Source of the DNA: an uncultured Gemmatimonadota bacterium
Lineage (GTDB): Bacteria > JAAXHH01
Assembly (NCBI GenBank): GCA_951812955.1
Contig: OX638340.1
Coordinates: 2,912,001 to 2,976,000, forward strand
Direction of reading: 5' to 3'
Length of the DNA stretch: 64,000 bases
In this document: positions 9,823-37,012 of the stretch, one piece after another
Layout of the letters: each line of letters begins with the position of its first letter
Numbering within the stretch: the stretch's first letter is position 1
Made by a program: the position numbers and the translations under genes
Notes under the pieces: model-generated
Databases searched by the model: none
Seen by the model: the letters and a program-made list of their open reading frames with translations, nothing else
Told to the model about the DNA's origin: nothing

Positions 9823-10914
9823 ATGTCCGAGCAGGTCCAGATTGCCCCGGCGCCGGAACCTGTCCCGCCGTCTCCCGCGCTGCCCGTACTGCAACCGGAC
9901 TCGGGCTATCTCGGGTACGACCGGGCGCTGTTGCGGCCCATGTCCCTCGGCACTAAGCTCCGAGCCTTGTTCAAGTACCTCTGGGTACGATTGAAGGGCG
10001 GACCGATGGCGGTGAACATGGAGGTGACCTATCTGTGCAACGCCACCTGCGATTTCTGTGATTACTGGAAGACGAAACGTTCAGGCAAGCTGGGCGATTA
10101 CGACTACATGGAGGCGCTCAGGAAGCTGAACCCCCTGACGGTCACGCTGACCGGCGGGGAACCCATGATCAACAAGCGACTGCCCGAGGCGGTCAGACGC
10201 ATCAAGGATGGCCTGGGATTCGTTTATATCGGCATGGTCACCCACGGATCTCTGCTGACCGTAGAAAAGGCCATGGCCCTGTGGGATGCCGGCGTGGACC
10301 ACATTTCGATCTCGTTGAACTATATCGGCCGCGAACATGACGAGGAACGGGGTATCGCGGGTTTGTACGAGCATATCTCCACGCTCGTTCCCCAGCTGAC
10401 GGCCCGAGGGGTCAACGTGATCTTCAACACGGTGATCATGCGTGAGAACCTGGACCACGTCGTACCCATCGCGCACCTGGCGCGTTCTATGGGCGCGAAG
10501 GTTTCCTACAGTTGCTACAGCGACTACAAGAATGGGAACGAAACCCACCTTGTGGATCCCGGTCACGAGGAGCAGTTGGAATCCGTGATCGAGGATCTGA
10601 TCTACCAGAAATCCCGATTGGGAAACATCGTCAATTCCGCCTGGTACTTGCGCCGGATCCCCGATTACTTCCAGGATGCGCTTCCAAGGTCCTGCACGGC
10701 AGCGGGCAAGTGGCTGGTGCAACTGACTCCCGACGGCAACGTAAAACCCTGTGCGGAACTGCCCGTAATGTCCGGGTATGCCGATTTCAAGCGGGTTTCA
10801 ACGAAGATCGACTGCAACCGGTGCTGGTACAGTTGCCGGGGTGAGACCGAATCTTCGTTGAAGCTTGTAAGGGTGCTGGAAGGCCTGGGCAGGGCCTGGC
10901 GCAGTAGCGCTTAA
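9823..10914 (+). CDS. Radical SAM enzyme with C-terminal Cys-rich (SPASM/twitch-like) region
   Basis: CNATCDFCDYW CxxxCxxC motif, TLTGGEPM SAM-binding motif. C-terminal C...CNRCWYSCRGE cluster. Pro/Ala-rich 60-aa N-terminal extension. Confidence 0.7.
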   Translation: MSEQVQIAPAPEPVPPSPALPVLQPDSGYLGYDRALLRPMSLGTKLRALFKYLWVRLKGGPMAVNMEVTYLCNATCDFCDYWKTKRSGKLGDYDYMEALRKLNPLTVTLTGGEPMINKRLPEAVRRIKDGLGFVYIGMVTHGSLLTVEKAMALWDAGVDHISISLNYIGREHDEERGIAGLYEHISTLVPQLTARGVNVIFNTVIMRENLDHVVPIAHLARSMGAKVSYSCYSDYKNGNETHLVDPGHEEQLESVIEDLIYQKSRLGNIVNSAWYLRRIPDYFQDALPRSCTAAGKWLVQLTPDGNVKPCAELPVMSGYADFKRVSTKIDCNRCWYSCRGETESSLKLVRVLEGLGRAWRSSA

Positions 10915-13900: not shown

Positions 13901-16613
13901 GGTCGATGATCCAGTCGGCCGTCTTGATCACGTCGATGTTATGTTCGATGACAACGACGGTGTTGCCCTTGTCCACGAAGGCGTTCAGCACGGCGAGCAG
14001 ATGGGTGATGTCTTCGAAATGCAGGCCGGTCGTCGGTTCGTCCAGCACGTACATGGTCCGTCCCGTGCTTCGCTTGCACAGTTCACGGCCCAGCTTGATG
14101 CGCTGCGCCTCGCCCCCCGACAGCGTGGGCGCGGGCTGGCCCAGCTTGATATACCCCAGGCCTACGTCGTAGAGCGTCCTCAGCACCCGTGCGATGGACG
14201 GAACGTGCTCGAACAGTTCAAGCGCCTCCTGCACGTCCAGGTCGAGCACGTCGGCAATGGAGCGTCCCTTGTATTTCACCTCCAGGGTTTCCCGGTCGAA
14301 GCGCCTGCCTTCGCAAACGGGACAGGAGACCCACATATCCGCCAGGAAGTCCATCTCCACCCGCGTAGCCCCGTTGCCCTGGCAGGCTTCGCACCGGCCG
14401 CCCCGCACGTTGAAGCTGAACCGTCCCGGCCGGTAACCGCGCAACCTGGCTTCGGGGGTTTCGGCGAAGAGGGAGCGGATCGCGTCGAAGACCTTCGTGT
14501 AGGTTGCCGGATTCGATCTGGGCGTGCGGCCGATGGGGGCCTGGTCGATGTTGATCACCTTGTCCAGGTGCCCGACGCCCTTGAGGCCGTCATGTTCGCC
14601 CGGGTCCGTGCCGGCCTTGTTCAGCAGACGGGCCAGAGCCGCGTACAGGATGTCGTTGATCAGCGAGCTTTTACCGGAACCGGACACGCCCGTTACGCAC
14701 GTAAACCGTCCCACGGGCAGGCGCACGTCCAGGTTCTTGAGGTTGTTCTGACGGGCGCCCTGGATCATCAGCCACTTATCGGCCTCGCCGCGGCGCAAGG
14801 CCGGAATCGGGATCGTCTTCTTCCCGCACAGATACTGCCCGGTCAACGAAGCGGCGCTGGCTGCCACTATGCCGGGGCGGCCTTCGGCCACGATCTCGCC
14901 GCCGTTGACGCCGGCGCCCGGACCAAAATCCACGATGTGGTCGGAAGCCCACATGGTTTCTTCATCGTGCTCGACAATGATGACCGTATTGCCCTGGTCC
15001 CGCAACTGGCCCAGGGTATCCAAAAGCCGCCGGTTGTCCCTGGGATGCAGTCCGATACTCGGTTCGTCGAGCACGTACATCACGCCGACGAGCCCGCGGC
15101 CGATCTGGCTCGCGAGACGTATGCGCTGCGCCTCTCCGCCTGATAGCGTCGGCGCCGTGCGTTCCAGCGAAAGGTATTCGAGGCCCACGTTGAGGAGGAA
15201 GTCGAGCCGGGCGACTATTTCCTTGAGCGCTTCGTCGCCGATCTGGCGTTCGGCATCCGAAAGGGTCAGCTTCCGAAAGAAAGCGCGGATATCCAGTATC
15301 GGCAACCGGCACAGCGCGGCGATGGAGAGGCCGCCCAGGGTGACGGAAAGCGCTTCTGGCTTGAGGCGTTCTCCGCCGCAGCGATCGCATTGGCCTATGG
15401 CCATGTACCGTTCGATCTCGGTCTTGTGCCTGGGGGACTTGAGCGTATGGTACCGTTTTTCTAGGTCGGGAACGACCCCGTTGAACCGGTCCTTGTGCGA
15501 CCACTCGCCGCCCTTCCCGTTGTGGAAGGTGAAGGTGATTCGCTTGTATCCCAGGCCGTACAGCACCACCTTCCGCGCCTCTTCGTCCAACCGTTCCCAT
15601 GGCGTGTCCAGGCTGAAACCCACGTGTTGGGCTATCCCCTCGAAAAAGTGCCGTTTCCACTGGTTGGCGATGGTGCCGAGGGGTTCGATCGCCCCTTCGT
15701 TAATGGACTTCGCCGGATCGGGAATGATGAGCCTGGGTTCGATCCGCATCATGGTGCCCAGGCCGTGACAGTTCGGGCACATGCCCTGGGGGCTGTTGAA
15801 GGAGAACAGTTGCGGCGTGGGCTCCTCGTAACTCAGGTCACACGCGTTGCAGGCGTACCGCGTGCTGAAGAGCAGATCAGAAGTCCGGCCGTCCCCCTCC
15901 ATCTGGACCAACACGGAACCCTGGCTCAGGTGCAACGCGCCTTCCACCGCCTCGACCAGGCGGGTGCGGATGTCCTCCCGCACGACGAGCCTATCCGTCA
16001 CCACTTCGATCGTGTGCCGCATGTTTCGGTCCAGATCCGGATCCTCGGAGAGGTTGACGACGTCGCCGTTCACCCGGGCGCGCAGGTAGCCCTGCCGGCG
16101 CAGGTCCTCGAAGAGGTCCCGGTATTCGCCGCGGCGCCCCTGGATGACCGGCGCCAGTACGAGCAGCCGCGTTCCTTCGGGAAGCGCCAGGATCCGCGCG
16201 ACGATCTGTTCGAGGGTCTGCGCCCCTATCGACCCACCGCATTTCATGCAGTGAGGCGCCCCTACCCGGGCATACAGCACGCGCAGGAAGTCGTAGATCT
16301 CCGTGATCGTCCCGACGGTGGAACGGGGGTTCAGCCCGGCGGTTTTCTGTTCGATGGAGATGGCGGGCGCCAGTCCCGTGATCCGGTCGACGTCGGGTTT
16401 CTGCATCTGGCCGAGGAACTGTCTCGCGTAGGCCGATAGGGATTCGACGTAGCGCCGCTGGCCCTCCGCGTAAAGGGTATCGAAAGCCAGCGAAGACTTG
16501 CCGGATCCGGATACGCCGGTGAAGCAGATCAGTGCGTCTTTCGGCAGATCCAGGCTCACGTTCTTCAGGTTGTGAACGCGGGCCCCTTTGATTTGTATGG
16601 ATGTTGCGGCCAT
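10911..16613 (-). CDS. uvrA: Fused tandem UvrA-UvrA (two complete excinuclease ABC subunit A units in one 1900-aa polypeptide)
   Basis: MAATSIQIKGARVHNLKN...GVSGSGKSSLAFDTLYAEGQRRYVESLSAYARQF is a canonical UvrA N-terminus. It has four Walker A boxes, four LSGGEAQR signatures and multiple Zn-finger Cys clusters. The second full UvrA starts about aa 965 (IREITVRGAREHNLRDL...GVSGSGKTSLALDTIYAEGQRRYV). There is no stop between the units. The track ORF extends to 16667, but the UvrA-like start is ATG 16613. Confidence 0.85.
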   Translation of the reverse strand: MAATSIQIKGARVHNLKNVSLDLPKDALICFTGVSGSGKSSLAFDTLYAEGQRRYVESLSAYARQFLGQMQKPDVDRITGLAPAISIEQKTAGLNPRSTVGTITEIYDFLRVLYARVGAPHCMKCGGSIGAQTLEQIVARILALPEGTRLLVLAPVIQGRRGEYRDLFEDLRRQGYLRARVNGDVVNLSEDPDLDRNMRHTIEVVTDRLVVREDIRTRLVEAVEGALHLSQGSVLVQMEGDGRTSDLLFSTRYACNACDLSYEEPTPQLFSFNSPQGMCPNCHGLGTMMRIEPRLIIPDPAKSINEGAIEPLGTIANQWKRHFFEGIAQHVGFSLDTPWERLDEEARKVVLYGLGYKRITFTFHNGKGGEWSHKDRFNGVVPDLEKRYHTLKSPRHKTEIERYMAIGQCDRCGGERLKPEALSVTLGGLSIAALCRLPILDIRAFFRKLTLSDAERQIGDEALKEIVARLDFLLNVGLEYLSLERTAPTLSGGEAQRIRLASQIGRGLVGVMYVLDEPSIGLHPRDNRRLLDTLGQLRDQGNTVIIVEHDEETMWASDHIVDFGPGAGVNGGEIVAEGRPGIVAASAASLTGQYLCGKKTIPIPALRRGEADKWLMIQGARQNNLKNLDVRLPVGRFTCVTGVSGSGKSSLINDILYAALARLLNKAGTDPGEHDGLKGVGHLDKVINIDQAPIGRTPRSNPATYTKVFDAIRSLFAETPEARLRGYRPGRFSFNVRGGRCEACQGNGATRVEMDFLADMWVSCPVCEGRRFDRETLEVKYKGRSIADVLDLDVQEALELFEHVPSIARVLRTLYDVGLGYIKLGQPAPTLSGGEAQRIKLGRELCKRSTGRTMYVLDEPTTGLHFEDITHLLAVLNAFVDKGNTVVVIEHNIDVIKTADWIIDLGPEGGDAGGRVIAEGTPETVAGVDGSSTGRILEKALRPRALPVAPKPVRQDAAGDGHIREITVRGAREHNLRDLTVAVPRDRMTVFTGVSGSGKTSLALDTIYAEGQRRYVESLSAYARQFLQQMQKPKVDHIVGLSPAISIEQKAPGRNPRSTVGTITEIYEYLRALYALVGAPHCPACRVPIGAQTPSQIVDRIMTLPEQTRATLHAPLEPEGAEGYDALLDRARRNGFIRVRIDGVLRRLEEDIQIDRRRRHELCVVVDRIVMQGDVRQRLADSVETALDLSGGLLIAEVQEPDSAGPHDIRFSRYYSCPACGVSYDELSPQSFSFNHRAGMCPDCEGLGTQPGIDLDLLIPDRSKSIRDAAAAIWEEGTVGERSILDLLELVASTQGFNLETPVEALSAEQLQVLLYGSDRWIEDQRVPGLSFQFRGIFPAVELVARYANRFPELARLLQPTPCSACEGGRLRSESLSVLIDGVSIAALCAMSTDRALDFIEGLKLSAPQREVVGEVMKEIRNRMRFLLDVGLEYLTLDRRAPSLSGGEAQRIRLASQIGSGLTGVLYVLDEPTIGLHPRDNLRLIHALENLRDLGNTLIMVEHDRDTLEHADNLVDFGPGAGVFGGRIVGEGTPAALRELETSLTGSYLGNRLRIEVPRDRRKPGRNRLSILGARQNNLKNIDVTLPLGVFICVTGVSGSGKSSLVNDILHPVLASTLHRAQVNPGPHDEIKGLRFVDKVINIDQTPIGHSPRSDPSTYVGLFAPIRSLFSRTVEARMRGYEPRRFSFNVPAGRCEACQGLGVRKIEMHFLADVWMTCEVCDGKRYMKETLEVTYKGKTIADTLEMTVAEALEHFENVPRIRRMLQTLYDVGLDYIKLGQSAITLSGGEAQRVKLAKELSRPGTGKTVYLLDEPTTGLHFDDIRKLLNVLNRLVDKGNTVLVIEHNLDVIKTADWIVDLGPEGGDRGGHVVAAGTPEDIAASLLSHTGKILARELAPVVV

Positions 16614-16844
16614 GGGAATCAAGCCGGATTCAGCGGGTCGTTGGATCAGGGCGAACGGCGGCGGCACAGCAAGCGAAAGATGCTATACGGGTGTTTAGAA
16701 ATCAAGGTATTTTCAAGGTGGACCGTGAATGGCGGAAAAGACGCTTGTTCTATGCCGTTACCGGAGTTAACGTGGTGTCGGCCGGTCCATCAGAATGCGG
16801 CGCGCCGGCCCGCCGCAGCCGATGTCGGAAACGGGACGATCATC

Positions 16845-25179: not shown

Positions 25180-27717
25180 TTACCGCGCGAGGTTTTCGTA
25201 GACCGCTTGCGCTTCACGGAACTGGCCGATCACGTGGTCTATCTCTTCCTGTGAGCGCCAGCCCGGGTGCGCTTCGGCCATTTCGATGAGCCGGTCGATC
25301 CACCGGACGAAATACCCGGCGGATTCCCGGTTGCGGATCGGATCATCTCCCACGTAGATCCGTATGGGTTGTGTCGTGGCCAGCGGAAAACGGTCGTCGA
25401 TGGGGTGGGTCCAGGGGGCACCTTCTGCCTGGAAGGTGTACCATCCGCTCTCACGAACCGTCCACTCTTCCTCGAAGACCGCACGCTTTCCGTCTTCGGC
25501 CAGGGGTATTTCCTTCACAATCTGCCCATTCCTGTAGACCAATACCTTCTCGAGCGGGACGATGCTGTGCATTTCGCCGGCGAGCGAGATCGCACCGCCC
25601 TCTTCAGGTAGATGGATGGTCTCGCCGGGTCCCATGCCGTTGATGGTAAACCCCAGGAGCGGTCCGTTGGTGGCAAAAGTCCGACCGGCCTTCAGTCCCG
25701 CCAGCCAGGCGTCCCAGGACAGGGATTCGTCGCCCAGGTGGACATAGGACCGGACCTGTCCCACGATTGCGGTCCGGTACATGCTGCTGATCGAATCCTC
25801 ACCGCCGGTCAGGACGATGTTGAAGTCGTTGTTGAGCAAATGGTGCCATACGCTGAGGACGGCATGGCCGGCCCCGGAGATCTCGAGTGCTTCCACGGTT
25901 CCCAGTGCCGCGTCGACGGGAAAAGCCTTGGCGCCGCCCAGCGTCGGGTTGTCTCCCCCCAGCGGATCCGCATCGCCGAAAAAGGGATGGACGTATCCGC
26001 GGAAGGCGCCCTGTTCTCCGGCCAGCCGCAACATGTCCGTGTTCGATGGGTAGAGGCTGTGTATTGCGGTTCCCTCGTAGCCGGACGCAAAGGGCGACAG
26101 CAGAAAGTCCGAAAGGTCGATGAAGTAGACGTGACCGTGAAAGGCCGGCCGGTATTCCTCGCCCACGTGCAGGATGCGGTCCGGCGTGGACAGGGCGTCC
26201 GGCCTGCCCGTGAAAAACTGGTAGTCCAGCACGCGGTTGTCCTTGTTTGCCACGAGTTCGTTGACCACGGCCTGATCTTCCGCGTCCGACATGTGCATCA
26301 GGTTCTCCAGGGTGTTATGCAGGTCGCCTGCGTAGTTCATATGCACGTGGGTGCTGCCGCTGTACCAGCCCCTGGAGGGCATGTCCACCATGCGTGAGAG
26401 CGTAAGGGCAACAGCGGTGGTCTTGCCTTCCTCGATCTCTACTGTAGTGCTCACGGGATGATATTCAAAGCCCCGCATGGCTTCCACCGTCAAGGGTCCG
26501 GACGGAACATCGAGGACGAACGAACCGGCACCATGAAAGAAATGCTCGCGGAGACGGCCGACGCGGTGGTAGGCGCCCTCCGGGGCATAGGATTTCCCGT
26601 CTTCGGCTTTTACATAGACACGGGCCGCGGTCGGCTTTCCCGTTTCACCGTCCAGCACGGTGACCGCAGCGCGACCGTGGGAACCGCGCCAGCGCTTTTC
26701 GTTGATCTTGACGTCAGTCAGTCTGCCTCCGACGGTTTCCATGACTCGCATCACGGGCAAACCGGGTTGATTTGAGATAAAGGCGATTTTGGAACCGTCC
26801 GGCGACCAGCGGGGGTAGAAGTCGTCCCATTCGCCGAAGGTGATTTTATATGGGTGCCCCCCGTCTGCCGGCAGGAGGTAGAGTTTCGTGTACTGGCCGC
26901 CGCTGTGGGAGGCATAGACAAAGCGTGAGCCGTCCGGAGACCAGTGCGGACGCGTCCGGTACAGGGTCTGTTCTTCGTGGACGATCCAAGCTTTGTCGAT
27001 ACCGTCCGGTTCGACCGGCATGCGCCATACGGCACCCGATCCAAGTGGGATGCCCCGGTTGCTGACGAACATGAGTTCCTTGCCGTCGGGCGACCAGTGC
27101 GGTTCGATGTGCAGGTCGTACGCGCCGAAATACAGGCGGCGCTTACCGTAGTCATTGTCCCGCGTCAGCTGAATCGGATCTCCGGAGGCGAGGCCGTCTT
27201 TCATGTCCTGAACGAAGATGTTGAAATAGCCGCCGGGTTCCGTGGACACGTAGGCCAGCCTGGAGCCATCGGGCGACCACGCAGGGTCGAGATACAGGTG
27301 GTCTCCGGTAGTCAGCGGCGTGGATGCTCCCGTTTCCACGTCCAGGACCATGAGATCGATCGTCCTGTTGTCGGTTTCAGCCGTGTATACGATCCACCTG
27401 CCGTTGGGCGACCAGGCCGGCGAGGAATCGTAGGTTTCGTTATCGGTAAGTTCGTATGCGATGTTTTCGCCCAGCCCGATACGCCATATGGAACCGTGCA
27501 GGCCAAAGGCCAGTTCGTTTCCTTCGGGCGACCACGCCGGCCGCCGGGGCGTAGTCGTCGAGGGCGGCGGCAGGTAGAAGTTGTGCATGTAGTTGCCGCC
27601 GGTCAGGGCGGCCTGGTACGCCGTGGGAGGGGGTTGCTGGGACACCGAGCGATCTGTCGCCGCCAGGCAGCAGAAGGCCAGCACCAGTCGCAGGGAACCG
27701 GGTAGTCTCGTCATCAT
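25180..27717 (-). CDS. Secreted TolB-like (PD40) beta-propeller protein fused to CehA/McbA-type (PHP-like) metal-dependent hydrolase domain
   Basis: Signal peptide. Repeated WSPDG/WSPNG PD40 motifs in the N-terminal 400 aa. C-terminal GSTHVHMNYAGD...HPFFGD metal-binding His clusters. Confidence 0.55.
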   Translation of the reverse strand: MMTRLPGSLRLVLAFCCLAATDRSVSQQPPPTAYQAALTGGNYMHNFYLPPPSTTTPRRPAWSPEGNELAFGLHGSIWRIGLGENIAYELTDNETYDSSPAWSPNGRWIVYTAETDNRTIDLMVLDVETGASTPLTTGDHLYLDPAWSPDGSRLAYVSTEPGGYFNIFVQDMKDGLASGDPIQLTRDNDYGKRRLYFGAYDLHIEPHWSPDGKELMFVSNRGIPLGSGAVWRMPVEPDGIDKAWIVHEEQTLYRTRPHWSPDGSRFVYASHSGGQYTKLYLLPADGGHPYKITFGEWDDFYPRWSPDGSKIAFISNQPGLPVMRVMETVGGRLTDVKINEKRWRGSHGRAAVTVLDGETGKPTAARVYVKAEDGKSYAPEGAYHRVGRLREHFFHGAGSFVLDVPSGPLTVEAMRGFEYHPVSTTVEIEEGKTTAVALTLSRMVDMPSRGWYSGSTHVHMNYAGDLHNTLENLMHMSDAEDQAVVNELVANKDNRVLDYQFFTGRPDALSTPDRILHVGEEYRPAFHGHVYFIDLSDFLLSPFASGYEGTAIHSLYPSNTDMLRLAGEQGAFRGYVHPFFGDADPLGGDNPTLGGAKAFPVDAALGTVEALEISGAGHAVLSVWHHLLNNDFNIVLTGGEDSISSMYRTAIVGQVRSYVHLGDESLSWDAWLAGLKAGRTFATNGPLLGFTINGMGPGETIHLPEEGGAISLAGEMHSIVPLEKVLVYRNGQIVKEIPLAEDGKRAVFEEEWTVRESGWYTFQAEGAPWTHPIDDRFPLATTQPIRIYVGDDPIRNRESAGYFVRWIDRLIEMAEAHPGWRSQEEIDHVIGQFREAQAVYENLAR

Positions 27718-27854: not shown

Positions 27855-28664
27855 TCAGTTCCGTTCCAACGCTTTTTCGACTTCGGAATCCCAGGTGCCG
27901 TCCACGCGTATCCCATATTCGGCTACGCCCCCAGTGGCCCGTGGTCCGGTGATATAGGGCCGGTAGTCGCGGCCGTCCTCAATGAGGCGGTCCGGCGCGT
28001 AGTCCGCGCGGAGGAAGTGGAAGGCGATGCCGGCCCGGGCCTTATTCGTACTGTTATGACCCGTGCAGTGCGCGGTGCCATAGCAGAAGAACAGCGCGCC
28101 GCCTGCCTTCAGCTCGATGATATCCGCTTGTTCCTCCGGCGGGTAGCAGCGTATGTGGTGGTCGCTGTACTGGTCCCGGCTATGCTCGTAGGCTGTCCGG
28201 TAGCTGTCCGGGATCACCTGCATGGTGCCGTTTTCGACGTTCGCGTCGTGCACGGCAATCCAGACGGCCGTTCCCATAAGGGGATCGCTGATCTTGAAAT
28301 AGGCGTTGTCCTGGTGCCAGTGGGTGCCCATGCCGTCTCCGCCCGGTTTGAGGAAGACCTGGTCCAGTTGGAGAATATAGGGGTCTCCGATCAACTGGGA
28401 GATGGCGGCGATCACGTCGGGCTGGAACGGAAGGGCCCTGAACAGGTCGCTGTGGCTGAACATAGGGCACAACTGCAGGTTGCGCCGCGTCGTGGACTTC
28501 GTCTCTCCATCGCCCTCCGTGGCCACGTTGCGCAAGGCGCCTTCTTCCATGAGACGATCGATTTCGGCCTGAAGCGCCCGGGTATCCTCGTCGGAGAAGA
28601 ACCCGGGTTTAGCCACGTAGCCATGAGATTTGAAATGGTCGACTTCTTCCTTTGTCAATACCAT
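27855..28664 (-). CDS. Phytanoyl-CoA dioxygenase (PhyH)-family Fe(II)/2-oxoglutarate oxygenase
   Basis: MVLTKEEVDHFKSHGYV N-terminus, HWHQDNAYF HxD motif, C-terminal His. Confidence 0.65.
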   Translation of the reverse strand: MVLTKEEVDHFKSHGYVAKPGFFSDEDTRALQAEIDRLMEEGALRNVATEGDGETKSTTRRNLQLCPMFSHSDLFRALPFQPDVIAAISQLIGDPYILQLDQVFLKPGGDGMGTHWHQDNAYFKISDPLMGTAVWIAVHDANVENGTMQVIPDSYRTAYEHSRDQYSDHHIRCYPPEEQADIIELKAGGALFFCYGTAHCTGHNSTNKARAGIAFHFLRADYAPDRLIEDGRDYRPYITGPRATGGVAEYGIRVDGTWDSEVEKALERN

Positions 28665-28796: not shown

Positions 28797-31700
28797 TCAG
28801 AAGCTCATGCGAGCCAGCAGGCCGATTCGGTGATCGGACGCGCTGCCATGCCGCTCGAGTCGCATACCGGAGAGTTCCAGGGATGCGCCGCTGGCGCGAG
28901 AACCCGATTGGGAGAGTCTGGCGCCCAGCCGCATCCGCCGCCGGTCGTCTCCGAGGAGATACATTTCGCCGAAAGGCGTCATCAACATGCCAATGGACGG
29001 ATACGCGAGCCCGTAACCGACCTCGGCCTTGAACGCACGGGTGTTGTCCCGGCCGTTCACGGATGTACCGGCAAGCGGTCTGTCACGCCACATCATGCCC
29101 GAGTCTCCCGTACCGGCGCCAATACGCGGCGCGATGGACATGGATAGACCGGTCCCGCCCGCACCGGGATTGAGGTAGGCGGCAACGGAGAACCCGTTTT
29201 CGCTGTATCCATCGGCGGTGTGCACCGCCAGGAACCTGCCCTGCGCGTTTACGCCCACCCGGCCGCCTGACAGGCGCAAGCCTCCCGAGACCTCCAGACC
29301 CTGGCCCGTCTGGCCGGTGCCGCCGTCATAACGTCCGGCAACCTGGGCATAGGGCGTGATCGTGGTTCCGCCGGCAAGCGTCGACGTACGTGACCCTTCC
29401 AGGCCGATCCGGACCCGCTGCACGTCGCTTTCGATGTCGCTCAACGACGGGGATTCGCTGTCGGCGGTCGAAAGACGCAACAGGCCGGCGTCCCCGATTA
29501 CATCGAGACCCGTGCCGCCCGTCCCCGCCACCCGCATGCGCGTGCCCACCATGGCCATGCGCATGGAGAGATCGCTCGCAGCATCCTCCACATCGACTTC
29601 GCCGGTGCCGAGACCCACAATCGACCACACTTCCGTAAGACAGGTGCTGCTTGCCCATCGCAGGTATGGCAGCACACTGGTAAGGCGCGATTCCAGGCTG
29701 CCGCTCGCGACCGTTACGTCGTAATCGGACTGGCCCGCCGCGTGCGAAAGGGCAATACCCGCCATCCAGTTGCGCTCCGTGGCCACATCAAAACCGACGT
29801 AAGCCGTCTTCATGTCGCCATCGTAGCTGGTATTCACGTCGGGTTCGCCCTGGAAGTTCTGCAAATCGCCGGCGCCCCAGACAGACCATCGGAGACCTCC
29901 GTTGGCCGTGCCATCCTCCAGCGCGTACGAGAACGAACTCGTGCTCAACAGGTATCCGCTGTTAACGTAGCGCCGGTTTTCGCCGTCGTTCAACAGCGCC
30001 AGGTGTTTCGCCGAAACCTGGCGTCCGTGGCCGGTAAGTCTGGCCAGGGCCGCCACACTGGACGCGAATCCGTCTATCCTGCGACCTCCCACGGTGAATC
30101 CCTGTCCGCCCGTTCCATCGGAGAAGCGGCCGCCGATCGTTGAGGAGACGCTGGACAGCATGTTCCGGCCCATGGCGCTCAGGATGTTCTCGTAGACCAT
30201 CCGTTCCGCCGCGATGGCCGTAACCGTCACGCCGACGGTAAGGCTGGCCTCGCCGGCCGCGTTCCGGGCGGTGACCGTCACTGTGGCGGAACCCTTGCGA
30301 ACGCCTGTTACGGTCAGCGTGGCCGCCGACATAACGGCCGTTGCCACGCTGTTATCGGATGTGGACGCGGTTAAACTCAGATCTGTACCGCTGAACAGCG
30401 CACCCGCGTTGATTGTCTCGCTTTCACCCGAGTCCAGTGATACCGAAGGCGGACTGCCCACGATTGCCGGGGCATCGTAGGAGTCGGTTATTGTGACCGT
30501 CGCGGAATCCAGGTCCTGGCCATCGTAACTCGCCGTGACGATGATCGTCTCTCCTCCGGACTCGTACACATCGTCGTTGATGACCGTGATGGCAAGCTCG
30601 GAAGAACCTTCCGTGGCCTCGCCTGGAATCGTAATACTCAGGTTGCCACGGACGCTGTAGTCATCGCTGCTGGCCGTACCGGATAGCGCAAGCGGGATTA
30701 CCGTCGTGATCGGTATGGCCCCGCTCGTCTGCGTCGCCGTCACGTTCACGGTCTGCGTACCGCCGTCTTCGGACACAGCCTCGGGGGTAACAGAAAGCGT
30801 AATCTCCGGGACGTAGCCGGTCAGATCGAAATAGAATCCTGACCCGATTACGAGTTCCGTCCCGTCGACCATGACGGTTTCCGTGTAACTCACCTTGGGC
30901 GAGCCCGTATCTTCGTCGCCGTCCACAGCCGGGTTGTCGAAGTAATACTCTACATAACCTCCCCCGGCCTGCGCTGCCGCGATAAGCTCACGAGTGTAAT
31001 AGACCCCATTCAGGTCCTGGTCATCGAAAATGTTCATGTTCTCGATCGATGGGTTGGCACCGTTGAAAACGAGCAGGCCGTCTGTTTGCAGGAAAAAAAT
31101 GTAGATCTCACCCAGCCGCCAGTTTCCGTCCTCGACCCGGAAGGCCTCGACGACGTCACTGTGAAGATCGAATCCCACTTCATCGATGGCGCCTTTGTAG
31201 GCTGCTTTGGCCGCCTGGACAAATGACCTGAGGCTTGCCCGGTCCATCACGTCCGCCGCGGTTACGTCTCCAACAGGAAGAGGAGGTACGAGAACGTCCA
31301 GCACCGTGATCGTCGACGACCCGATATCCTCTCCCTCGTAAGTGGCCTTAACCACGATGGTCTCGCCGTCTTCCTCGGCTACGTCGTCGATCACATCGAA
31401 GGTAAGCGTCGTGGAAGCCGACGTGGCATCCCTTGGAATGATGATTTCGAGCGTTCCGTCCGAGGTATAGTCATCGCTTGTGGCCGTACCCTCGAGTGTC
31501 AGGTCGATGATCGTAGCCACCGGCACCGGGTCGTCGGTGAGCGTGGCCGTCACGGTCACCTCCTGGCCGTCTTCGCCTTCGACGAGGGTTTCACGGTCCA
31601 CCTCCAATGTGATCGCCGGGACGTCGTCCACGGGTCTTCGGTAAAAACCGGCGCCCACGACGAAGGTCTGGCCGGGATAAAAATCCGGATATTCAATAGT

Positions 31701-34700
31701 CTCAGCGTAACTCACCTTGGGCGAACCGAGCTCTTCGTCTCCCATGACCGACGGGTCGTCATAGTGGTACTCGACAAATCCACCGCCCCCAATCGCGACG
31801 TTGATGAGGTCTTCAATGAAGCGCTTGCCGTTCAAGTCTTCCAGGTCGATCCGAATGGCGCCTTCCTGCGTTATGTCCGCCCCGTGGAAGAACACGAACC
31901 CTTGCGTTGTCAGGACGAACAGGTAGATGGCGCCTTCCCTGAACGGTCCTCCTTCTTCCCTCAATGCGGCTTTCAGCCTCCCGACCTCCACGCCGCGCGT
32001 TTCGAAGGCCTCAAAAGTCCAGTCTACGGTGCCTCGCACGAAGGCCTTCAGCGTTTCCTTGTCCACCACGTCCTGCGCACGCACAGCTGGCGGATCCGGA
32101 AGCGTGACTTCTGAAACAGCATCGGGGATATCCATGTTGAAGCCGCCTACCAGGATGAAATCACCCACGCCGAACCCGGATGCGTACGAAGTGGCGTAGG
32201 CCACGCGGTTGGGATCGTCATTGGGATCGTTCGGATCATCCCAGGTGAATTCGACGAAACCCCCTCCTGAATTGGCCGCCGCGAGGATCTTCTGAACGAC
32301 TTTTTCTCCTTTGTCGTCTTCCAGGTCGCTAATGTCAATGCCGTCGCGGGTCGGGTCGTCGCCGTGGAAGAACATCTCGCCTGCAATCGTCAGGACCGAA
32401 AGGTACAGGTCTCCTTGTTTCCAATCGCCTTCGGAACGGAACGCGACACCCAGGGCCGGGAGTTCGTTGGCGTCGGTAATGCGTTCCAGGGAATCGGCCA
32501 CAGTTTCGACAAATCCCTTCAGCGTCTCGCGGTCTACTACTTCGCTGGCCACGATCGTTGTTTTTTCCTTCACCGTGATCGTCGCCGACCCGATATCCTC
32601 TCCCTCGTAAGTGGCCTTAACCACGATGGTCTCATTGGCGCCGTCGATCACATCATCCACCACGTCGAAGGTGAGCGTGGTGGAAGCCGCGGTGGCATTC
32701 CTTGGGATAATGACCTCCAGCGTTCCTTCCACGGTGTAGTCATCGGAAGTGGCCGTACCGTCAAGAGACAGGTTGATGATCGTCGCCACCGGCACCGGGT
32801 CATCGGTCAGCGTGGCAGTTACCGTCACTTCCTGGCCGTCACGGCCTTCGACTACGGATTCCGGATCCACGGCCAGCGTGATCTCCGGTACGTCGTCCAC
32901 AGGTCTTCGGTAGAAGCCTGCGCCTACGACGAAGGTCTGCCCGGGATAATAATGCGGGAATTCAACCGTTTCGGCATAACTCACCTTGGGCGAACCCAGC
33001 TCTTCATCACCCATAACCGAAGGATCGTCATAGAAGTACTCGACAAAACCACCACCTGCTACCGCGGTATTTATGAGATCTTCGATAAAGCGCTTGCCGT
33101 TCAGGTCTTCGAGATCGATCCGGATCGCACCTTCCTGCGTCATGTCCGCCCCGTGAAAGAACACGTACCCATTCGTTGTAAGAATAAACAGGTAGATGGA
33201 GCCTTCTCTAAATGGTCCGTCTTCTTGCCTCAAAACGGCTGTCAGTGTCCCGGCCTCGACACCATGCGTCTCGAAAGCGGTAAAGGACCATTCGATCGCG
33301 CTTTTCACGAAAGCCTTAAGACTCTCCTTGTCCACCACGTCCCGTGCCTGGACAGCGGGCAAATCGGGCAGCATACCCTCTTCCGGATCGGGAATGTCCA
33401 TGTTGAAGCCGCCCACCAGGATGAAATCACCCGACCCAACAAAACCGGATGTATATCGGACCGCGTAAGCCAGCCGGTTCGGATCATCATTGGGATCATT
33501 CGGATCATCCCAGGCAAAATCTACGAACGCTCCCTCGGCGTCCGCTGAGATGATATCCTGAACTACTTTATTGGCGTTGTCGTCTTCCACATCGCTTATA
33601 TCGAACCCGTCCCGGGTGGGATCGTCACCGTGGAAAATCAATACGCCTTCAGGGGTGAGCACCGAAAGGTACAGGTCTTCATGTTTCCAATCGCCTTCTT
33701 CTCGGAGGACACCCCACAATCGAGGGACCTCGTTGATATCGGTAACCCGTTCGAGAGAATCCGCCACCATGTCGACGAATGCCTTCAATGTCACATCATC
33801 CTCCACGTCAGCGGCCGTAATACGTCCAGTAGCGTCAAGAATCGACAGCGTGTCGGCCGCCACTTCCTCCAGGTCGTGGTTGGCAGTGACGATGATGGTT
33901 TCGCCGTCCGCTTCCGCTACTTCGTTGTCCGCCACGTCGAACGTCAGTTCCGTGGTCCCTTCCGTCATCTCGGCGGGTATCGTGACGACCATCTCGCCGG
34001 TTACTGTGTAGTCGGTGTTCTCCACGGCCGTGCCCGACAGGGTCAGCGGCATTCGAACCGATACGGGCAATGCACCATCGGCCCGGGTTTGCGTAGCCGT
34101 CACGGTCACGGTCGCGGTCTCGCCCTCGGTCAACACATCGGGGTCTGCGGCCAGCTCGATCGTACCCACATGATCTTCAAGTTCGTCGAAGTATAAACCG
34201 GAGCCAATGATGTAATCGTTGCCATGAAACACAAACTCTTCGGCGTAGCTCAACTTCGGCGAACCGGTATCTTCGTCTCCCATGACATCCGGATCGTCAT
34301 AGTGATATTCGACAAAACCGCCACCTGCCTGTGCCGCGGCGATGAGATCCTGGATGAAGTACTTCCCGTTTACGTCCTGTTCATCCCATGCAGACATGTT
34401 CTGCAGGCTGGCGTTGGCTCCATGGAAGAACCAGTCTCCCTCGGTGGTCAAAACGAACAGGTAGGTGTGTTCGTGCCTCCAGGGGCTGCCTTCCTGCCTG
34501 AAAATATCCAGGTTCGCTGACAAGATGTCGAAACCGTATTGTTCGAGGGCTGTCTGGTAAGTGGTGATGGATCCCTCTACGAACTTTACGAGGGTACCCC
34601 GGTCCATCACCTCGGAAGCCGTGACCTCCGGGTGGGGAAGCTCATCCGGATTTATCGTGGGTGTGGGAGGGCTCGAACCGGAAAGATTCTGGCGGAATCC

Positions 34701-35240
34701 GCCGACCATGATCACCTTCTGTCCGGTTATACCTGAAGTGTAGCTCACGGCATAGGCAGTTTTAGCGGTATCTTCGTCCCCCTGCTCGTCCGGATCATCC
34801 CAGTAGTAATCGACGAAGTCGCCACCCTCCACGTCCGCGGCCGTTAAGAGCGCTTGCACCACCTTTGTGCCCATCGCATCTTCGACATCAGAGATATTTG
34901 CTGTATTTACCGAGTGGTCATTGGCATGAAGCCATACAATACCGCCCGGCAAAAGGATGATGAGGAAGGTGGTGCCGTCATTCCAGTCTTCCTCGTCGCT
35001 GATTTTGTGGATCCATCCGCTGATATCGTTCGGATTGGTAACCGCTTCCGCATCGGCCTTCGCATACAGCACGAACTGCTTGAGGGTCGCGTCGTCCATT
35101 ACCTGGCCGGCCGTAATCGGTTCGACCTGGGCAGCAGCCGGCCCTGCTCCAATGAGTAGGCTTACCACACCCATCATTACCCCTAAAACCAGAGTTGATA
35201 ACATCAATCTATCAGAAATAGAGGAACTCATAATTGGCAT
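28797..35240 (-). CDS. Giant (2147 aa) outer-membrane-anchored surface protein with repeated sCache_2-like and Calx-beta-like domains and C-terminal beta-barrel
   Basis: Signal peptide MPIMSSSISDRLMLSTLVLGVMMGVVSLLIGAGPAAAQ. Seven repeats of the pattern ...YLFVLT..G...FHG......D.....G.......I..A..GGGFVEY.YDDP....KVSYA... (sCache_2-like). Four Calx-beta-like repeats (..VTVTAT......L.LSGTA...DYT......IP...T.G...LTFDV.DD...E..ETI.V). Big_2-like segment. About 550-aa C-terminal Gly/Ser/Ala-rich beta-strand region ending ...ARMSF. Confidence 0.6.
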   Translation of the reverse strand: MPIMSSSISDRLMLSTLVLGVMMGVVSLLIGAGPAAAQVEPITAGQVMDDATLKQFVLYAKADAEAVTNPNDISGWIHKISDEEDWNDGTTFLIILLPGGIVWLHANDHSVNTANISDVEDAMGTKVVQALLTAADVEGGDFVDYYWDDPDEQGDEDTAKTAYAVSYTSGITGQKVIMVGGFRQNLSGSSPPTPTINPDELPHPEVTASEVMDRGTLVKFVEGSITTYQTALEQYGFDILSANLDIFRQEGSPWRHEHTYLFVLTTEGDWFFHGANASLQNMSAWDEQDVNGKYFIQDLIAAAQAGGGFVEYHYDDPDVMGDEDTGSPKLSYAEEFVFHGNDYIIGSGLYFDELEDHVGTIELAADPDVLTEGETATVTVTATQTRADGALPVSVRMPLTLSGTAVENTDYTVTGEMVVTIPAEMTEGTTELTFDVADNEVAEADGETIIVTANHDLEEVAADTLSILDATGRITAADVEDDVTLKAFVDMVADSLERVTDINEVPRLWGVLREEGDWKHEDLYLSVLTPEGVLIFHGDDPTRDGFDISDVEDDNANKVVQDIISADAEGAFVDFAWDDPNDPNDDPNRLAYAVRYTSGFVGSGDFILVGGFNMDIPDPEEGMLPDLPAVQARDVVDKESLKAFVKSAIEWSFTAFETHGVEAGTLTAVLRQEDGPFREGSIYLFILTTNGYVFFHGADMTQEGAIRIDLEDLNGKRFIEDLINTAVAGGGFVEYFYDDPSVMGDEELGSPKVSYAETVEFPHYYPGQTFVVGAGFYRRPVDDVPEITLAVDPESVVEGRDGQEVTVTATLTDDPVPVATIINLSLDGTATSDDYTVEGTLEVIIPRNATAASTTLTFDVVDDVIDGANETIVVKATYEGEDIGSATITVKEKTTIVASEVVDRETLKGFVETVADSLERITDANELPALGVAFRSEGDWKQGDLYLSVLTIAGEMFFHGDDPTRDGIDISDLEDDKGEKVVQKILAAANSGGGFVEFTWDDPNDPNDDPNRVAYATSYASGFGVGDFILVGGFNMDIPDAVSEVTLPDPPAVRAQDVVDKETLKAFVRGTVDWTFEAFETRGVEVGRLKAALREEGGPFREGAIYLFVLTTQGFVFFHGADITQEGAIRIDLEDLNGKRFIEDLINVAIGGGGFVEYHYDDPSVMGDEELGSPKVSYAETIEYPDFYPGQTFVVGAGFYRRPVDDVPAITLEVDRETLVEGEDGQEVTVTATLTDDPVPVATIIDLTLEGTATSDDYTSDGTLEIIIPRDATSASTTLTFDVIDDVAEEDGETIVVKATYEGEDIGSSTITVLDVLVPPLPVGDVTAADVMDRASLRSFVQAAKAAYKGAIDEVGFDLHSDVVEAFRVEDGNWRLGEIYIFFLQTDGLLVFNGANPSIENMNIFDDQDLNGVYYTRELIAAAQAGGGYVEYYFDNPAVDGDEDTGSPKVSYTETVMVDGTELVIGSGFYFDLTGYVPEITLSVTPEAVSEDGGTQTVNVTATQTSGAIPITTVIPLALSGTASSDDYSVRGNLSITIPGEATEGSSELAITVINDDVYESGGETIIVTASYDGQDLDSATVTITDSYDAPAIVGSPPSVSLDSGESETINAGALFSGTDLSLTASTSDNSVATAVMSAATLTVTGVRKGSATVTVTARNAAGEASLTVGVTVTAIAAERMVYENILSAMGRNMLSSVSSTIGGRFSDGTGGQGFTVGGRRIDGFASSVAALARLTGHGRQVSAKHLALLNDGENRRYVNSGYLLSTSSFSYALEDGTANGGLRWSVWGAGDLQNFQGEPDVNTSYDGDMKTAYVGFDVATERNWMAGIALSHAAGQSDYDVTVASGSLESRLTSVLPYLRWASSTCLTEVWSIVGLGTGEVDVEDAASDLSMRMAMVGTRMRVAGTGGTGLDVIGDAGLLRLSTADSESPSLSDIESDVQRVRIGLEGSRTSTLAGGTTITPYAQVAGRYDGGTGQTGQGLEVSGGLRLSGGRVGVNAQGRFLAVHTADGYSENGFSVAAYLNPGAGGTGLSMSIAPRIGAGTGDSGMMWRDRPLAGTSVNGRDNTRAFKAEVGYGLAYPSIGMLMTPFGEMYLLGDDRRRMRLGARLSQSGSRASGASLELSGMRLERHGSASDHRIGLLARMSF
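31300..33820. repeat. Two near-identical tandem 1.26-kb direct repeats inside the giant gene (each encoding Cache-Cache-Calx unit)
   Basis: Protein units aa 474-895 and 896-1313 are about 80% identical. This produces mirrored spurious antisense ORFs (31764..32114 vs 32364..33548). Confidence 0.7.
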
Positions 35241-35396
35241 CTCCCATCTTTGGATGGAATTTAAGATTCGAAAGTACGATTAAAGTCTGGTTTATGTAGC
35301 AATTGCAGTATGAAATTTCACTTTCTTTCTACGTCAAGTCAAAGTTCGACCTTCATTCAGATTCCATTAGATAGAAATGTAATTTTAATAACTGCT

Positions 35397-36798
35397 TCAA
35401 TCAGGTAACGCCTCGTTGCCGAACCGCTCGATGGCATCCAGGGTCTCCAGGACATCGTCCCATGAAGTGGTGTAGTTTACAATACAGAGTCTCAACGAGA
35501 ACTTCTCCCAGAGATTGGTAGAGGATATGAACGCACGGTCTTCCCAGAAGATGCGGACGAGGACCTTCTTGTTGATTGCGTCCAGGGCGGACTCGTCGAG
35601 GTCTGCATGACCGGGATTGACGCGGAAGCATACGATGCCCAGCGACCCTGGTAACAACATCTCCAAGGTATTGCTGTTCCTGATGTAATCCTCAGCTTGG
35701 GCAGCCAGTTCAAGTCCTTTGGAAACGGCTCGACGGAAGGCCGCCATGCCGAAGATCTGCACGGACATCCAAATCTTCAATGCCCGTACGGACCTGCTGA
35801 GTTGCAGACCTCGGTCGGAGAAATTCGGATGATTCGCCCCCCACACCGTGTCCTGCAGGATATCGTGCCGCACCGCGAAGGCGCGCTCCAGCGTACCGAG
35901 GTCCTTTACCATCAGGCACCCGGCTTCGTATGGCTGGTAAAACAACTTATGCGCGTCCAGGCCGATCGAATCGGCGCGCCCGATGCCTCGCAGAAGAGGT
36001 TTCCCCCGTTCGGTAATGACCGCGAAACCGCCGTAGGCGGCGTCGACGTGGAACCAGATGCCTTCCGCTTCGCATAGATCCGCCATCGTTTCAAGCGGGT
36101 CGATCGCGCCCGTGCTGCTCGCTCCGGCGTTGGCGCATACGGCGACCGGTTTATACCCTGCCGATCGATCCTGTTCTATCGCGTGCTTCAGCGCTTCCGA
36201 ATCAAGACGGTAGCGCGCGTCGGTCTGTATCAGCCGTGCGTTCTCGTCGGGAATGCCGATGATCCTGGCTGCCCGGACCAGTGCGCTGTGACTCTGGTCG
36301 CTCATGTACACGGTAGCGTTGTCGGGATTGCCTGCCGCTTCCCGCGCCGCGACCAGGGCTTCCAGACTGGCCGCAGATCCCCCGCTTGTCATGAGCCCTC
36401 CCGCGGTCTCCGGGTATTCAAGCCATCGCCTGAACCAGTCGATAACGACCAGTTCCATCTGGCTGGCCCCGCTAGAGGTCAACCAGGTGCACTGGTTCAC
36501 CTGGTGCGCGGACACCATGAAGTCGGCGAAGCACCCCGGGCCAGGTCGGCGAAGACGGCATGAACGCAAAAAAACGGGGATGGTCGTTACGGGCGCCGAG
36601 GGGCAGGATCTCCTTCGCCGCCCTTTCAAGGACCTCCGTCGCGGAGCTTCCCTGTTCGGGCGGTTCCTCCATGAGCTGGTCTTCGAGCTCCTTCTTGAAT
36701 TCACCGTCCCAGGCATGTTCTTCAGGGAGCTTCTTGATGCGTTCAACGATCAACTCCGCCGTCTTGTTGGCGAGTTCAAGCATGGTCTCGGGCGACAT
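35397..36798 (-). pseudogene. Group II PLP-dependent amino-acid decarboxylase (DDC/GAD/DABA-decarboxylase family) interrupted by a 1-nt frameshift near 36528
   Basis: The N-terminal part (frame of track ORF 36472..37029) carries the hallmark HPRFFAFMPSSPTWPGVL. The body (ORF 35397..36746) carries SGGSAASLEAL and DAHKLFYQP PLP-Lys. Homology switches frame between ...PTWPGVL and ADFMVSAHQ. Confidence 0.6.
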
Positions 36799-37012
36799 CT
36801 GAAGGTCGCCGTTCGATTCAGCGGAAGTGCCTGTGCCATGCCCGCAGCCGGGTTTGGACGGATCGTGTGGAACGGCTATTTTGCCAGGATCGGATCGCAC
36901 GACGATAAATACCCGGGGATTTAGTGAAGCTGGTGTGAAGGTGTTAAAGGGTTGGTAAATCCAAGTATATATATACGAATTCTTGCCAAATAAAACATTT
37001 AAATATCTGTAC

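Follow-up and report, generated by a model that had tools for sequence, protein, structure and literature searches.

What does a small-molecule sensor domain do when a single chain bears seven copies of it and nothing attached to them could pass on a signal? The question is raised by a giant gene in a 64,000-nucleotide stretch of DNA from an uncultured Gemmatimonadota bacterium (assembly GCA_951812955.1, contig OX638340.1, positions 2,912,001 to 2,976,000; hereafter the window, whose own numbering is used throughout). An initial annotation, made from the letters of the DNA, had described the product as an outer-membrane protein whose passenger is an array of Cache-type domains. Its coordinates and length for the open reading frame (ORF; 28797-35240, 2147 residues) are correct; the strand, which it did not give, is here set as minus, with an ATG start, and the plus-strand translation of the same interval is broken by many stops. 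The database orthologue P0001 begins three codons after the start of the window ORF. Orthologues that are 64-100% identical lie on many independent contigs, several of them of megabase length, which rules out an assembly artefact or chimera. As set out below, we regard it as somewhat probable that the protein acts at the cell surface as a multivalent receptor which does not signal, but serves in adhesion to, or capture of, a ligand that bears a carboxylate.

Pfam detects seven sCache_2 (PF17200) stretches in the protein (E 4.6e-87; 290 bits, cut-off 25), and dCache_2 matches the same seven; a Big_2 domain (PF02368) at residues 1596-1669 (31.2 bits, cut-off 22.8); and an autotransporter beta-domain (PF03797) starting at residue 1787 (33.7 bits, cut-off 26). 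The proposed number of seven copies is confirmed, and the motifs quoted for them are present (GGGFVEY five times, [WY]DDP six times), but the repeats are not of a single kind: they fall into two sCache_2 subtypes, A (three copies) and B (four), with A2 and B2 37% identical and copies within a subtype 39-80% identical. Neither Pfam nor NCBIfam finds a methyl-accepting chemotaxis protein (MCP), HisKA, GGDEF or other output domain in the 2147 residues, in line with the annotated lack of a transmitter; the nearest NCBIfam models, those of the monocarboxylate sensor kinase MctS and the malate chemoreceptor CtpM, match in their sensor parts only and far under their cut-offs. The sole hydrophobic segment is the signal peptide, with no further transmembrane helix, and the protein has neither the two flanking transmembrane helices nor the output domain by which a Cache signal transducer is recognized (PMC4822843).

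Domains were cut by hand and eye, and separate hidden Markov models (HMMs) were built from the window protein's own A-type and B-type Caches and from its spacers, here called X, which are beta-sandwiches of ~105 residues present in four copies. The chain reads signal peptide, A1-B1-X1, A2-B2-X2, A3-B3-X3, B4-X4, Big_2, a linker of ~114 residues and a barrel of ~360, all on the minus strand. The predicted Sec signal peptide (MPIMSSSISDRLMLSTLVLGVMMGVVSLLIGAGPAAA/Q; residues 1-37, ...GAGPAAA/QVE, 35130-35240), already proposed by the initial annotation, is legible in the sequence as a charged N-region, a hydrophobic core and an AxA site. The first unit comprises A1 (residues 38-195, 34656-35129; Pfam stretch and A-type HMM), B1 (residues 196-365, 34146-34655; best Pfam stretch 258-358) and X1 (residues 366-478, 33807-34145; X HMM and four-copy alignment, with no Pfam match above cut-off). 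It is followed by A2 (residues 479-622, 33375-33806), B2 (residues 623-792, 32865-33374) and X2 (residues 793-903, 32532-32864), and then by A3 (residues 904-1046, 32103-32531; Pfam stretch), B3 (residues 1047-1216, 31593-32102) and X3 (residues 1217-1330, 31251-31592). The seventh Cache, B4 (residues 1331-1492, 30765-31250; Pfam stretch), and X4 (residues 1493-1592, 30465-30764) close the array. Units 2 and 3 are 72% identical in A, 80% in B and 81% in X, whereas unit 1 and the terminal B-X pair show 39-52%, the former being recent duplicates and the latter older. Tandem Repeats Finder reported no repeat, the unit of ~1.27 kb exceeding its 500-bp period limit and the copies being only ~75-80% identical. 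The passenger is ~1,630 residues long, contains 304 Asp and Glu against 82 Lys and Arg, and lacks Cys altogether. Beyond it lie the Big_2 domain (residues 1593-1672, 30225-30464), the linker (residues 1673-1786, 29883-30224) and the barrel (residues 1787-2147 plus the stop codon, 28797-29882), which ends in ...ARMSF, with the aromatic last residue that had been noted. The C-terminal beta-strand region was right in kind but, if taken as the 550 residues proposed for modelling, too large, as the barrel takes up ~360 residues after the linker.

An AlphaFold2 model of A2-B2-X2 (residues 479-903), computed with 17 family sequences as input, has a mean predicted local distance difference test (pLDDT) score of 84.8 (~80-89 in A2) and a predicted template modelling score (pTM) of 0.70. 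Both Caches display the sCache_2 fold, in which a PAS-like beta-sheet packs against a long helix at the N-terminus. Foldseek places 4K08 (Adeh_3718), 4EXO/2QHK (a Vibrio parahaemolyticus MCP), 5G4Y (PscD-SD) and TlpB at the top of the Protein Data Bank (PDB) matches, with target-normalised template modelling scores (TM-scores) of 0.56-0.74 for the sCache_2 structures and of 0.68-0.74 for 4K08, 4EXO and 5G4Y; 4K08, 4EXO, 5G4Y and TlpB are matched by B2. Sequence matches to the PDB exist for B2 and for A2, the latter to 4EXO, 2QHK and 4K08. HMM and fold searches thus both return sCache_2 for the repeats, and exclude a PepSY or PKD identity.

The spacers had been called Calx-beta-like and Big_2-like; both kinds are there, as four Calx-beta-like domains and one Big_2, but the first name does not hold at the level of the Pfam sequence model. 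PF03160 scores 15.7 bits (E 0.015, cut-off 27) with X4, the best of the four copies, and gives no hit with the other three; a profile of all four has no PDB relatives by sequence. The modelled beta-sandwich of X2, in contrast, matches the CBD1 domains of NCX1/CALX (2DPK, 3EAD and 3E9T; probability 1.0, TM-score 0.53-0.59), and also the adhesin CLIPPER domain 9IFR, and X4 is likewise modelled as a beta-sandwich. The X HMM finds 15 matches in protein P0031, whose sole precomputed Pfam family is PF03160, and a DD..E motif is visible in the alignment of the four copies. The label Calx-beta-like is therefore used here for a predicted, fold-level membership, based on the modelled fold and on intermediate sequences.

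A second model, of residues 1493-2147 (pLDDT 72.7), shows X4, Big_2 (pLDDT ~87-95), a long helix, a low-confidence stretch and the barrel in that order. The helix covers model residues 184-215 (residues 1676-1707 of the protein), and the Gly-rich stretch after it (model residues 216-289) has pLDDT <50; the motif AAER..Y.NIL.AMGR.MLSSVS.TIGGRF, which lies in the helix, is conserved across all proteins with this Big_2-helix-barrel anchor. The barrel superposes on the translocator of BrkA (3QQ2; TM-score 0.82, root-mean-square deviation 3.4 Å over 263 columns), its best match, and further on those of EspP, Hbp, EstA, NalP and AIDA-I, which argues that the protein is a type Va autotransporter and bears out the barrel seen in the initial annotation. 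A trimeric or inverse autotransporter is excluded by the single C-terminal barrel of ~360 residues.

Whether the modules could still bind a ligand can be judged from their pocket. In PscD-SD, Tyr90, His103, Tyr143 and Lys156 hydrogen-bond the carboxylate of the ligand, and Trp92 and Trp145 sandwich it (PMC5062169). HMMER alignments to 4K08 and 2QHK place the query residues Y, F, H, Y, Y and K on the corresponding positions. This Y-F-H-Y-Y-K set occurs in three of the four B domains of the window protein (B1, B2 and B3), B4 having Y-F-N-Y-F-K; A1 has F-I-H-Y-W-K and A2 Y-S-H-F-W-R. Across the B-type domains of the family the four polar positions are Tyr in 69/69, His in 67/69, Tyr in 69/69 and Lys in 67/69, while the A-type domains carry a relaxed tetrad of Y/F, H (49/49), Y/F and K/R. 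The strict Tyr/His/Tyr/Lys tetrad is found in 166, and its relaxed version in 191, of the 207 unique Cache domains that 76 related loci encode, and its columns rank 7th, 9th, 10th and 13th by conservation among ~160. In sCache_2 domains a His at the pocket position specifies pyruvate and a Leu L-lactate, and all the chemoreceptor domains of this type characterised in the same study bind one or the other (PMC12415202). Taken together, the conserved tetrad and its His point to a pocket kept by selection and of the pyruvate, or C2-C3 short-carboxylate, type. Since the tetrad and aromatic sandwich of solved sCache_2 structures clamp acetate, propionate or pyruvate, a small carboxylate group of this kind is the most likely ligand of each module. 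In comparison with the solved sCache_2 sensors, the two pocket strands are joined by a longer loop, which is acidic.

The architecture, unfamiliar to the initial annotation, is indeed without a description in the searchable literature, as is the wider set of non-signalling extracellular Caches, but it is not peculiar to this gene. A whole-protein search yields ~30 clusters (at 90% identity) that combine Cache and autotransporter domains, named in databases just 'cache domain-containing protein' or 'autotransporter domain-containing protein'. They are built as (A-B-X)n-B-X-Big_2-barrel, with n = 1 to 5, or, in a second group, as Bn-X-Big_2-barrel; orthologues of the window protein have 3 to 11 pockets per chain. 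The same Big_2-helix-barrel anchor elsewhere bears Calx-beta, Big_2/PKD and cadherin arrays (P0031-P0058), and appears to be a general display module for adhesin-type passengers.

Cache modules of this type extend well beyond these proteins. An exhaustive profile search covered 1.84 billion representative proteins; it produced 9,664 hits at E <= 1e-3, of which 261 reach E <= 1e-30, and 2 to 16 Cache stretches are present in many. When one genome per species was scanned, 266 relatives proved to be encoded there, from which the 76 loci were kept. Among these loci (numbered with L) are further barrel proteins, with the architectures ABABAB-barrel, BBBB-barrel and, in Rhodothermales, A-B-barrel; anchorless ABBBBB and BBBBB arrays in Bryobacterales and Terriglobia; stand-alone A-B proteins in Synechococcus, Dehalococcoidia and Caldilineaceae; and many double-Cache proteins of 540-650 residues, often as tandem paralogues. 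The C-terminal part of the last is a type A sorting domain of the type IX secretion system (T9SS; TIGR04183) in six of six tested (30-38 bits against a cut-off of 23), so that, judged by their anchors, Cache modules would be exported by two unrelated routes. The closest outside relatives of one B domain are secreted stand-alone Caches of 170-200 residues that are ~40% identical to it and share its pocket. No output domain was found in the 17 relatives scanned with Pfam. With autotransporters, T9SS substrates, anchorless arrays and secreted single domains, there are four predicted routes by which such modules reach the surface or the exterior.

Some members of this set have features of their own. 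Tandem Cache ORFs, mostly of the double-Cache kind, number five in L066:9812-20409 and eight in L072:5474-18380, both in Latescibacterota, and the single L066 paralogue tested has the T9SS sorting domain. The 2099 residues of P0132 (L079:6001-12300) comprise 16 Cache stretches, with neither a recognisable anchor nor any further Pfam domain; its gene adjoins those of major facilitator superfamily (MFS) transporters and a Bmp-type binding protein. In the stand-alone Cache P0123 (202 residues) the C-terminus is formed by a hydrophobic stretch and, after it, RRWRQR, and resembles a membrane or sorting anchor, while other stand-alone Caches terminate in a conserved SWG.LK motif.

Where a source can be traced, it is a sponge. 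On both sides of the locus the window shares ~96% nucleotide identity with L010; this contig belongs to 'Gemmatimonadetes bacterium APA_bin_41', which is a metagenome-assembled genome (MAG) from the sponge Aplysina aerophoba placed by GTDB in Latescibacterota with no class (Robbins et al. 2021, Table S1). IRC1_bin_16, COS4_bin_9 and RHO3_bin_7, MAGs from Ircinia ramosa, Coscinoderma matthewsi and Rhopaloeides odorabile, respectively (Robbins et al. 2021), are all among the related Cache loci, together with the SB066x bins, which from their tree-file prefix IRC_PAM we read as Ircinia ramosa MAGs. Many other loci come from MAGs with uninformative names, and exclusivity to sponges is not claimed. 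The relatives occur in MAGs of several phyla, and in sponge Thaumarchaeota Cache Pfams are enriched and a role in surface recognition has been suggested (PMC7848895). A published account of sponge Latescibacterota makes no mention of Cache, Calx or autotransporters. Compared with L010, positions 31367-36927 of the window (5.6 kb) are replaced by 1.4 kb (L010:9690-11084); on the replaced segment lie the decarboxylase gene described below and, with two additional A-B-X units, the initial 3.9 kb of the gene for the autotransporter, and the L010 protein has one such unit against three in the window protein. This difference over the repeats shows that the locus varies at strain level.

How the receptor would work can be deduced in its export steps from what is known of the autotransporter family. 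The Sec signal would lead the chain to the periplasm, the C-terminal barrel would insert into the outer membrane, and the Cys-free, very acidic passenger would be threaded out and fold outside the cell. As beads on a string, it would present seven small-molecule-binding sCache_2 modules at the surface without relaying a signal, each of which would use tetrad and aromatic sandwich to clamp a small carboxylate such as those of the pyruvate/C2-C3 type. The seven pockets of the chain, like the 3 to 11 of its orthologues, would serve avidity, and the lectin-like receptor may hold the symbiont to a carboxylate-decorated ligand in the sponge matrix, or capture it. The initial annotation had likewise preferred a surface module for ligand capture or adhesion to a signalling protein, a choice that the conserved pocket, the anchor shared with adhesins and the T9SS-exported relatives favour. 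Adhesion by avidity would fit the multivalency, the shared anchor, the strain-level variability and the predicted position on the outer surface.

Several observations weigh against this interpretation. In B4 an Asn replaces the pocket His (LVFNG) that orthologues keep, and the specificity of this module may have been lost or changed; A-type domains show Phe and Arg replacements within the tetrad. Tyr/His/Tyr/Lys is conserved over sCache_2 generally, which makes it evidence of a maintained pocket and not of the identity of the ligand, and a closed pocket of C2-C3 size is not obviously open to a group attached to a polymer. As for the anchor, the final barrel strands are modelled poorly (pLDDT <50 at model residues 534-574), and the predicted pore-type helix lies ~75-80 low-confidence residues ahead of the first barrel strand, which is untypical. 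Finally, a genomic linkage to a decarboxylase and a dioxygenase points to small-molecule metabolism over adhesion.

That linkage is the basis of the strongest rival. On the minus strand the window encodes, in order, an S-adenosylhomocysteine hydrolase, a group II pyridoxal phosphate (PLP)-dependent decarboxylase (35397-36746, 156 bp upstream of the autotransporter gene; Pfam Pyridoxal_deC E 1.7e-58), the Cache autotransporter, a PhyH-family Fe(II)/2-oxoglutarate dioxygenase (27855-28664, 132 bp downstream; Pfam PhyH E 4.6e-24) and a PD40/CehA-type protein. Close relatives share this synteny; in L080-L082 the PhyH gene is on the opposite side of the autotransporter gene. Of the 76 related loci, 18, which carry four different phylum labels, have a decarboxylase gene no more than 5 kb from Cache genes, and 20 have a PhyH gene at that distance. 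Decarboxylases 64-74% identical to that of the window adjoin quite different Cache genes in Latescibacterota (L018, L019, L040, L041 and L047), Rhodothermales (L051), Vicinamibacterales (L063) and Gemmatimonadaceae (L058), and in five of these loci (L018, L019, L040, L041 and L051) the gene starts at most 70 bp after the Cache gene or overlaps it. The cluster in Latescibacterota runs PhyH, two Peripla_BP_6 proteins, Cache and decarboxylase, and in L001 three stand-alone Cache genes stand beside those of an amino-acid permease and a PhyH protein. The Rhodothermales decarboxylase, at 74% identity to that of the window, comes near the values found inside the lineage of the window itself (78-83%), which suggests a transferred cassette.

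On this basis the Caches, be they stand-alone, T9SS-anchored or displayed by an autotransporter, may act as solute-binding proteins for a host-derived, amino-acid-like compound bound through its carboxylate, which would be imported and then processed by the dioxygenase and the decarboxylase, for example to a hydroxylated amine. A linkage that persists despite lineage-specific gene order, the binding proteins of the Latescibacterota cluster and the permease of L001 all speak for such a pathway, which we consider possible though rather unlikely. A protein tethered outside the outer membrane cannot pass a small solute to a transporter in the inner membrane, and surface sites would add little to the uptake of freely diffusing small acids. 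About 55 of the 76 loci lack both enzymes within 10 kb, and the 96%-identical genome of L010 keeps the autotransporter without the decarboxylase. The enzyme itself has the tryptophan decarboxylase 4OBU as its best PDB match and, with it, plant aromatic amino-acid decarboxylases as its best solved relatives, but it scores far under every NCBIfam cut-off. A scan for sigma-70 promoters and intrinsic terminators around the autotransporter gene found fewer sites than in shuffled sequence, and is uninformative on operon structure.

Two further features of the neighbours may be recorded. Homologues of the decarboxylase align from residue 70 of its TTG-started ORF (from residue 30 in 2/8), and its true start is probably downstream of the listed one. 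The PD40/TolB-like beta-propeller and CehA/McbA-family metallohydrolase protein (25180-27717, minus strand, 845 residues) lies downstream of the autotransporter-PhyH pair in close relatives as well.

The idea that the pocket has no ligand role, and that the Caches are rigid, Ca2+-stabilised blocks of a long surface fibre, is unlikely. It would account for the extreme acidity of the passenger, the Asp-rich loops beside the pocket strands (WDDPNDPNDDPN, DDPSVMGDEE), the alternation with Calx-beta-like spacers, an anchor common to repeat-type adhesins and the loss of the pocket His in one Cache of the window protein. The tetrad, however, is among the most conserved positions of the 207 domains, at family identities down to ~30%, and such constancy of buried polar Tyr, His, Tyr and Lys is unexpected for a purely structural role; the single-domain relatives of 170-200 residues keep the pocket and cannot be stalks. 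That the array is a true sensor, its occupancy relayed into the cell by some partner, is very improbable: all sCache_2 domains that have been studied by experiment are sensor modules (PMC4822843; PMC12415202), but here there is no transmitter domain and no transmembrane helix past the signal peptide, the modules are predicted to sit beyond the outer membrane, the conserved neighbours in the loci examined include no signalling gene, and a number of units that varies from one to five among orthologues ill suits a tuned receptor.

Returning to the multivalent surface receptor, a more specific form of it can be imagined, which is a long shot: Cache adhesins as horizontally shared factors of sponge symbiosis in several phyla, reading the pyruvate-ketal groups of Gal4,6(R)Pyr-GlcNAc-Fuc. 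About 100 such pyruvate-ketal trisaccharides occur per g200 glycan of the aggregation factor, or glyconectin, of Microciona prolifera (PMC7828597). In that case the molecule by which the host's cells recognise one another would also be the docking site of symbionts from unrelated phyla, and a Cache domain would for the first time be seen as a glycan-reading adhesin instead of a sensor. In its general form, the receptor is a candidate for host recognition, or for the use of host metabolites, in a symbiosis with few known molecular determinants; its Cache modules are small, soluble and confidently predicted, which makes ligand screens feasible.

Each part of the protein has known counterparts. 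The sCache_2 sensors PscD-SD (5G4Y), Adeh_3718 (4K08), 4EXO/2QHK, TlpB (3UB6), MctS and CtpM share with its Caches the Pfam family, the fold, the carboxylate clamp with aromatic sandwich and an extracytoplasmic site; the window protein differs from them in having no flanking transmembrane pair and no output domain, in its seven copies and in its outer-membrane anchor. With type Va autotransporters, both EstA (3KVN), whose passenger is no beta-helix, and the classical BrkA, EspP, Hbp, NalP and AIDA-I, it shares the signal peptide, the PF03797 barrel, the aromatic end and a Cys-free passenger. Unlike theirs, however, its passenger is a modular array of ligand-binding and immunoglobulin (Ig)-like domains, neither beta-helix nor enzyme, its linker helix is separated from the barrel by ~75 poorly modelled residues, and its host belongs to the Gemmatimonadota/Latescibacterota group and not to Proteobacteria. 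Giant repeat adhesins built from Calx-beta, Big_2 or cadherin arrays (P0031-P0058) resemble it in their long acidic repeat chain, variable copy number and kind of anchor. MpIBP and LapA are giant repeat adhesins of the RTX type. In contrast to such adhesins, the window chain consists mostly of Cache modules and not of Ig-like extenders, and its predicted export is of type V and not of type I.

Caches that do not signal have been met before in other settings. That of the animal alpha2-delta calcium-channel subunits is of the dCache_1 type subfamily. It too is extracellular and lacks a prokaryote-type transmitter, its protein being neither a two-component nor a chemotaxis transducer (PMC4822843), but it occurs in one or two copies as part of an ion-channel complex, and no evolutionary link is implied. 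SMP_2 is likewise a Cache-superfamily domain without an output domain, and the one exception in Upadhyay et al. 2016 (PMC4822843) to the general statement that Cache domains are found only together with output domains; it is a single domain, confined to proteobacteria, and neither of the sCache_2 family nor arrayed nor surface-anchored. The architecture described here and the wider set of non-signalling Caches contradict that general statement (PMC4822843). Since sCache_2, Big_2 and the type Va barrel are each known, it is their combination that is new, and the protein is not categorically so; by it, one of the commonest bacterial ligand-binding folds would be extended from sensing to binding at the surface.

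Two other genes of the window have unusual domain compositions. A 1918-residue ORF on the minus strand (10911-16667) fuses two UvrA units, with the UvrA interaction and DNA-binding domains present twice each alongside the ATP-binding cassette (ABC) ATPase. On the plus strand, positions 53915-57535 encode a 1206-residue fusion of a fatty-acyl reductase (NAD_binding_4 and Sterile domains), an AMP-binding adenylating enzyme and a haloacid dehalogenase (HAD) hydrolase.

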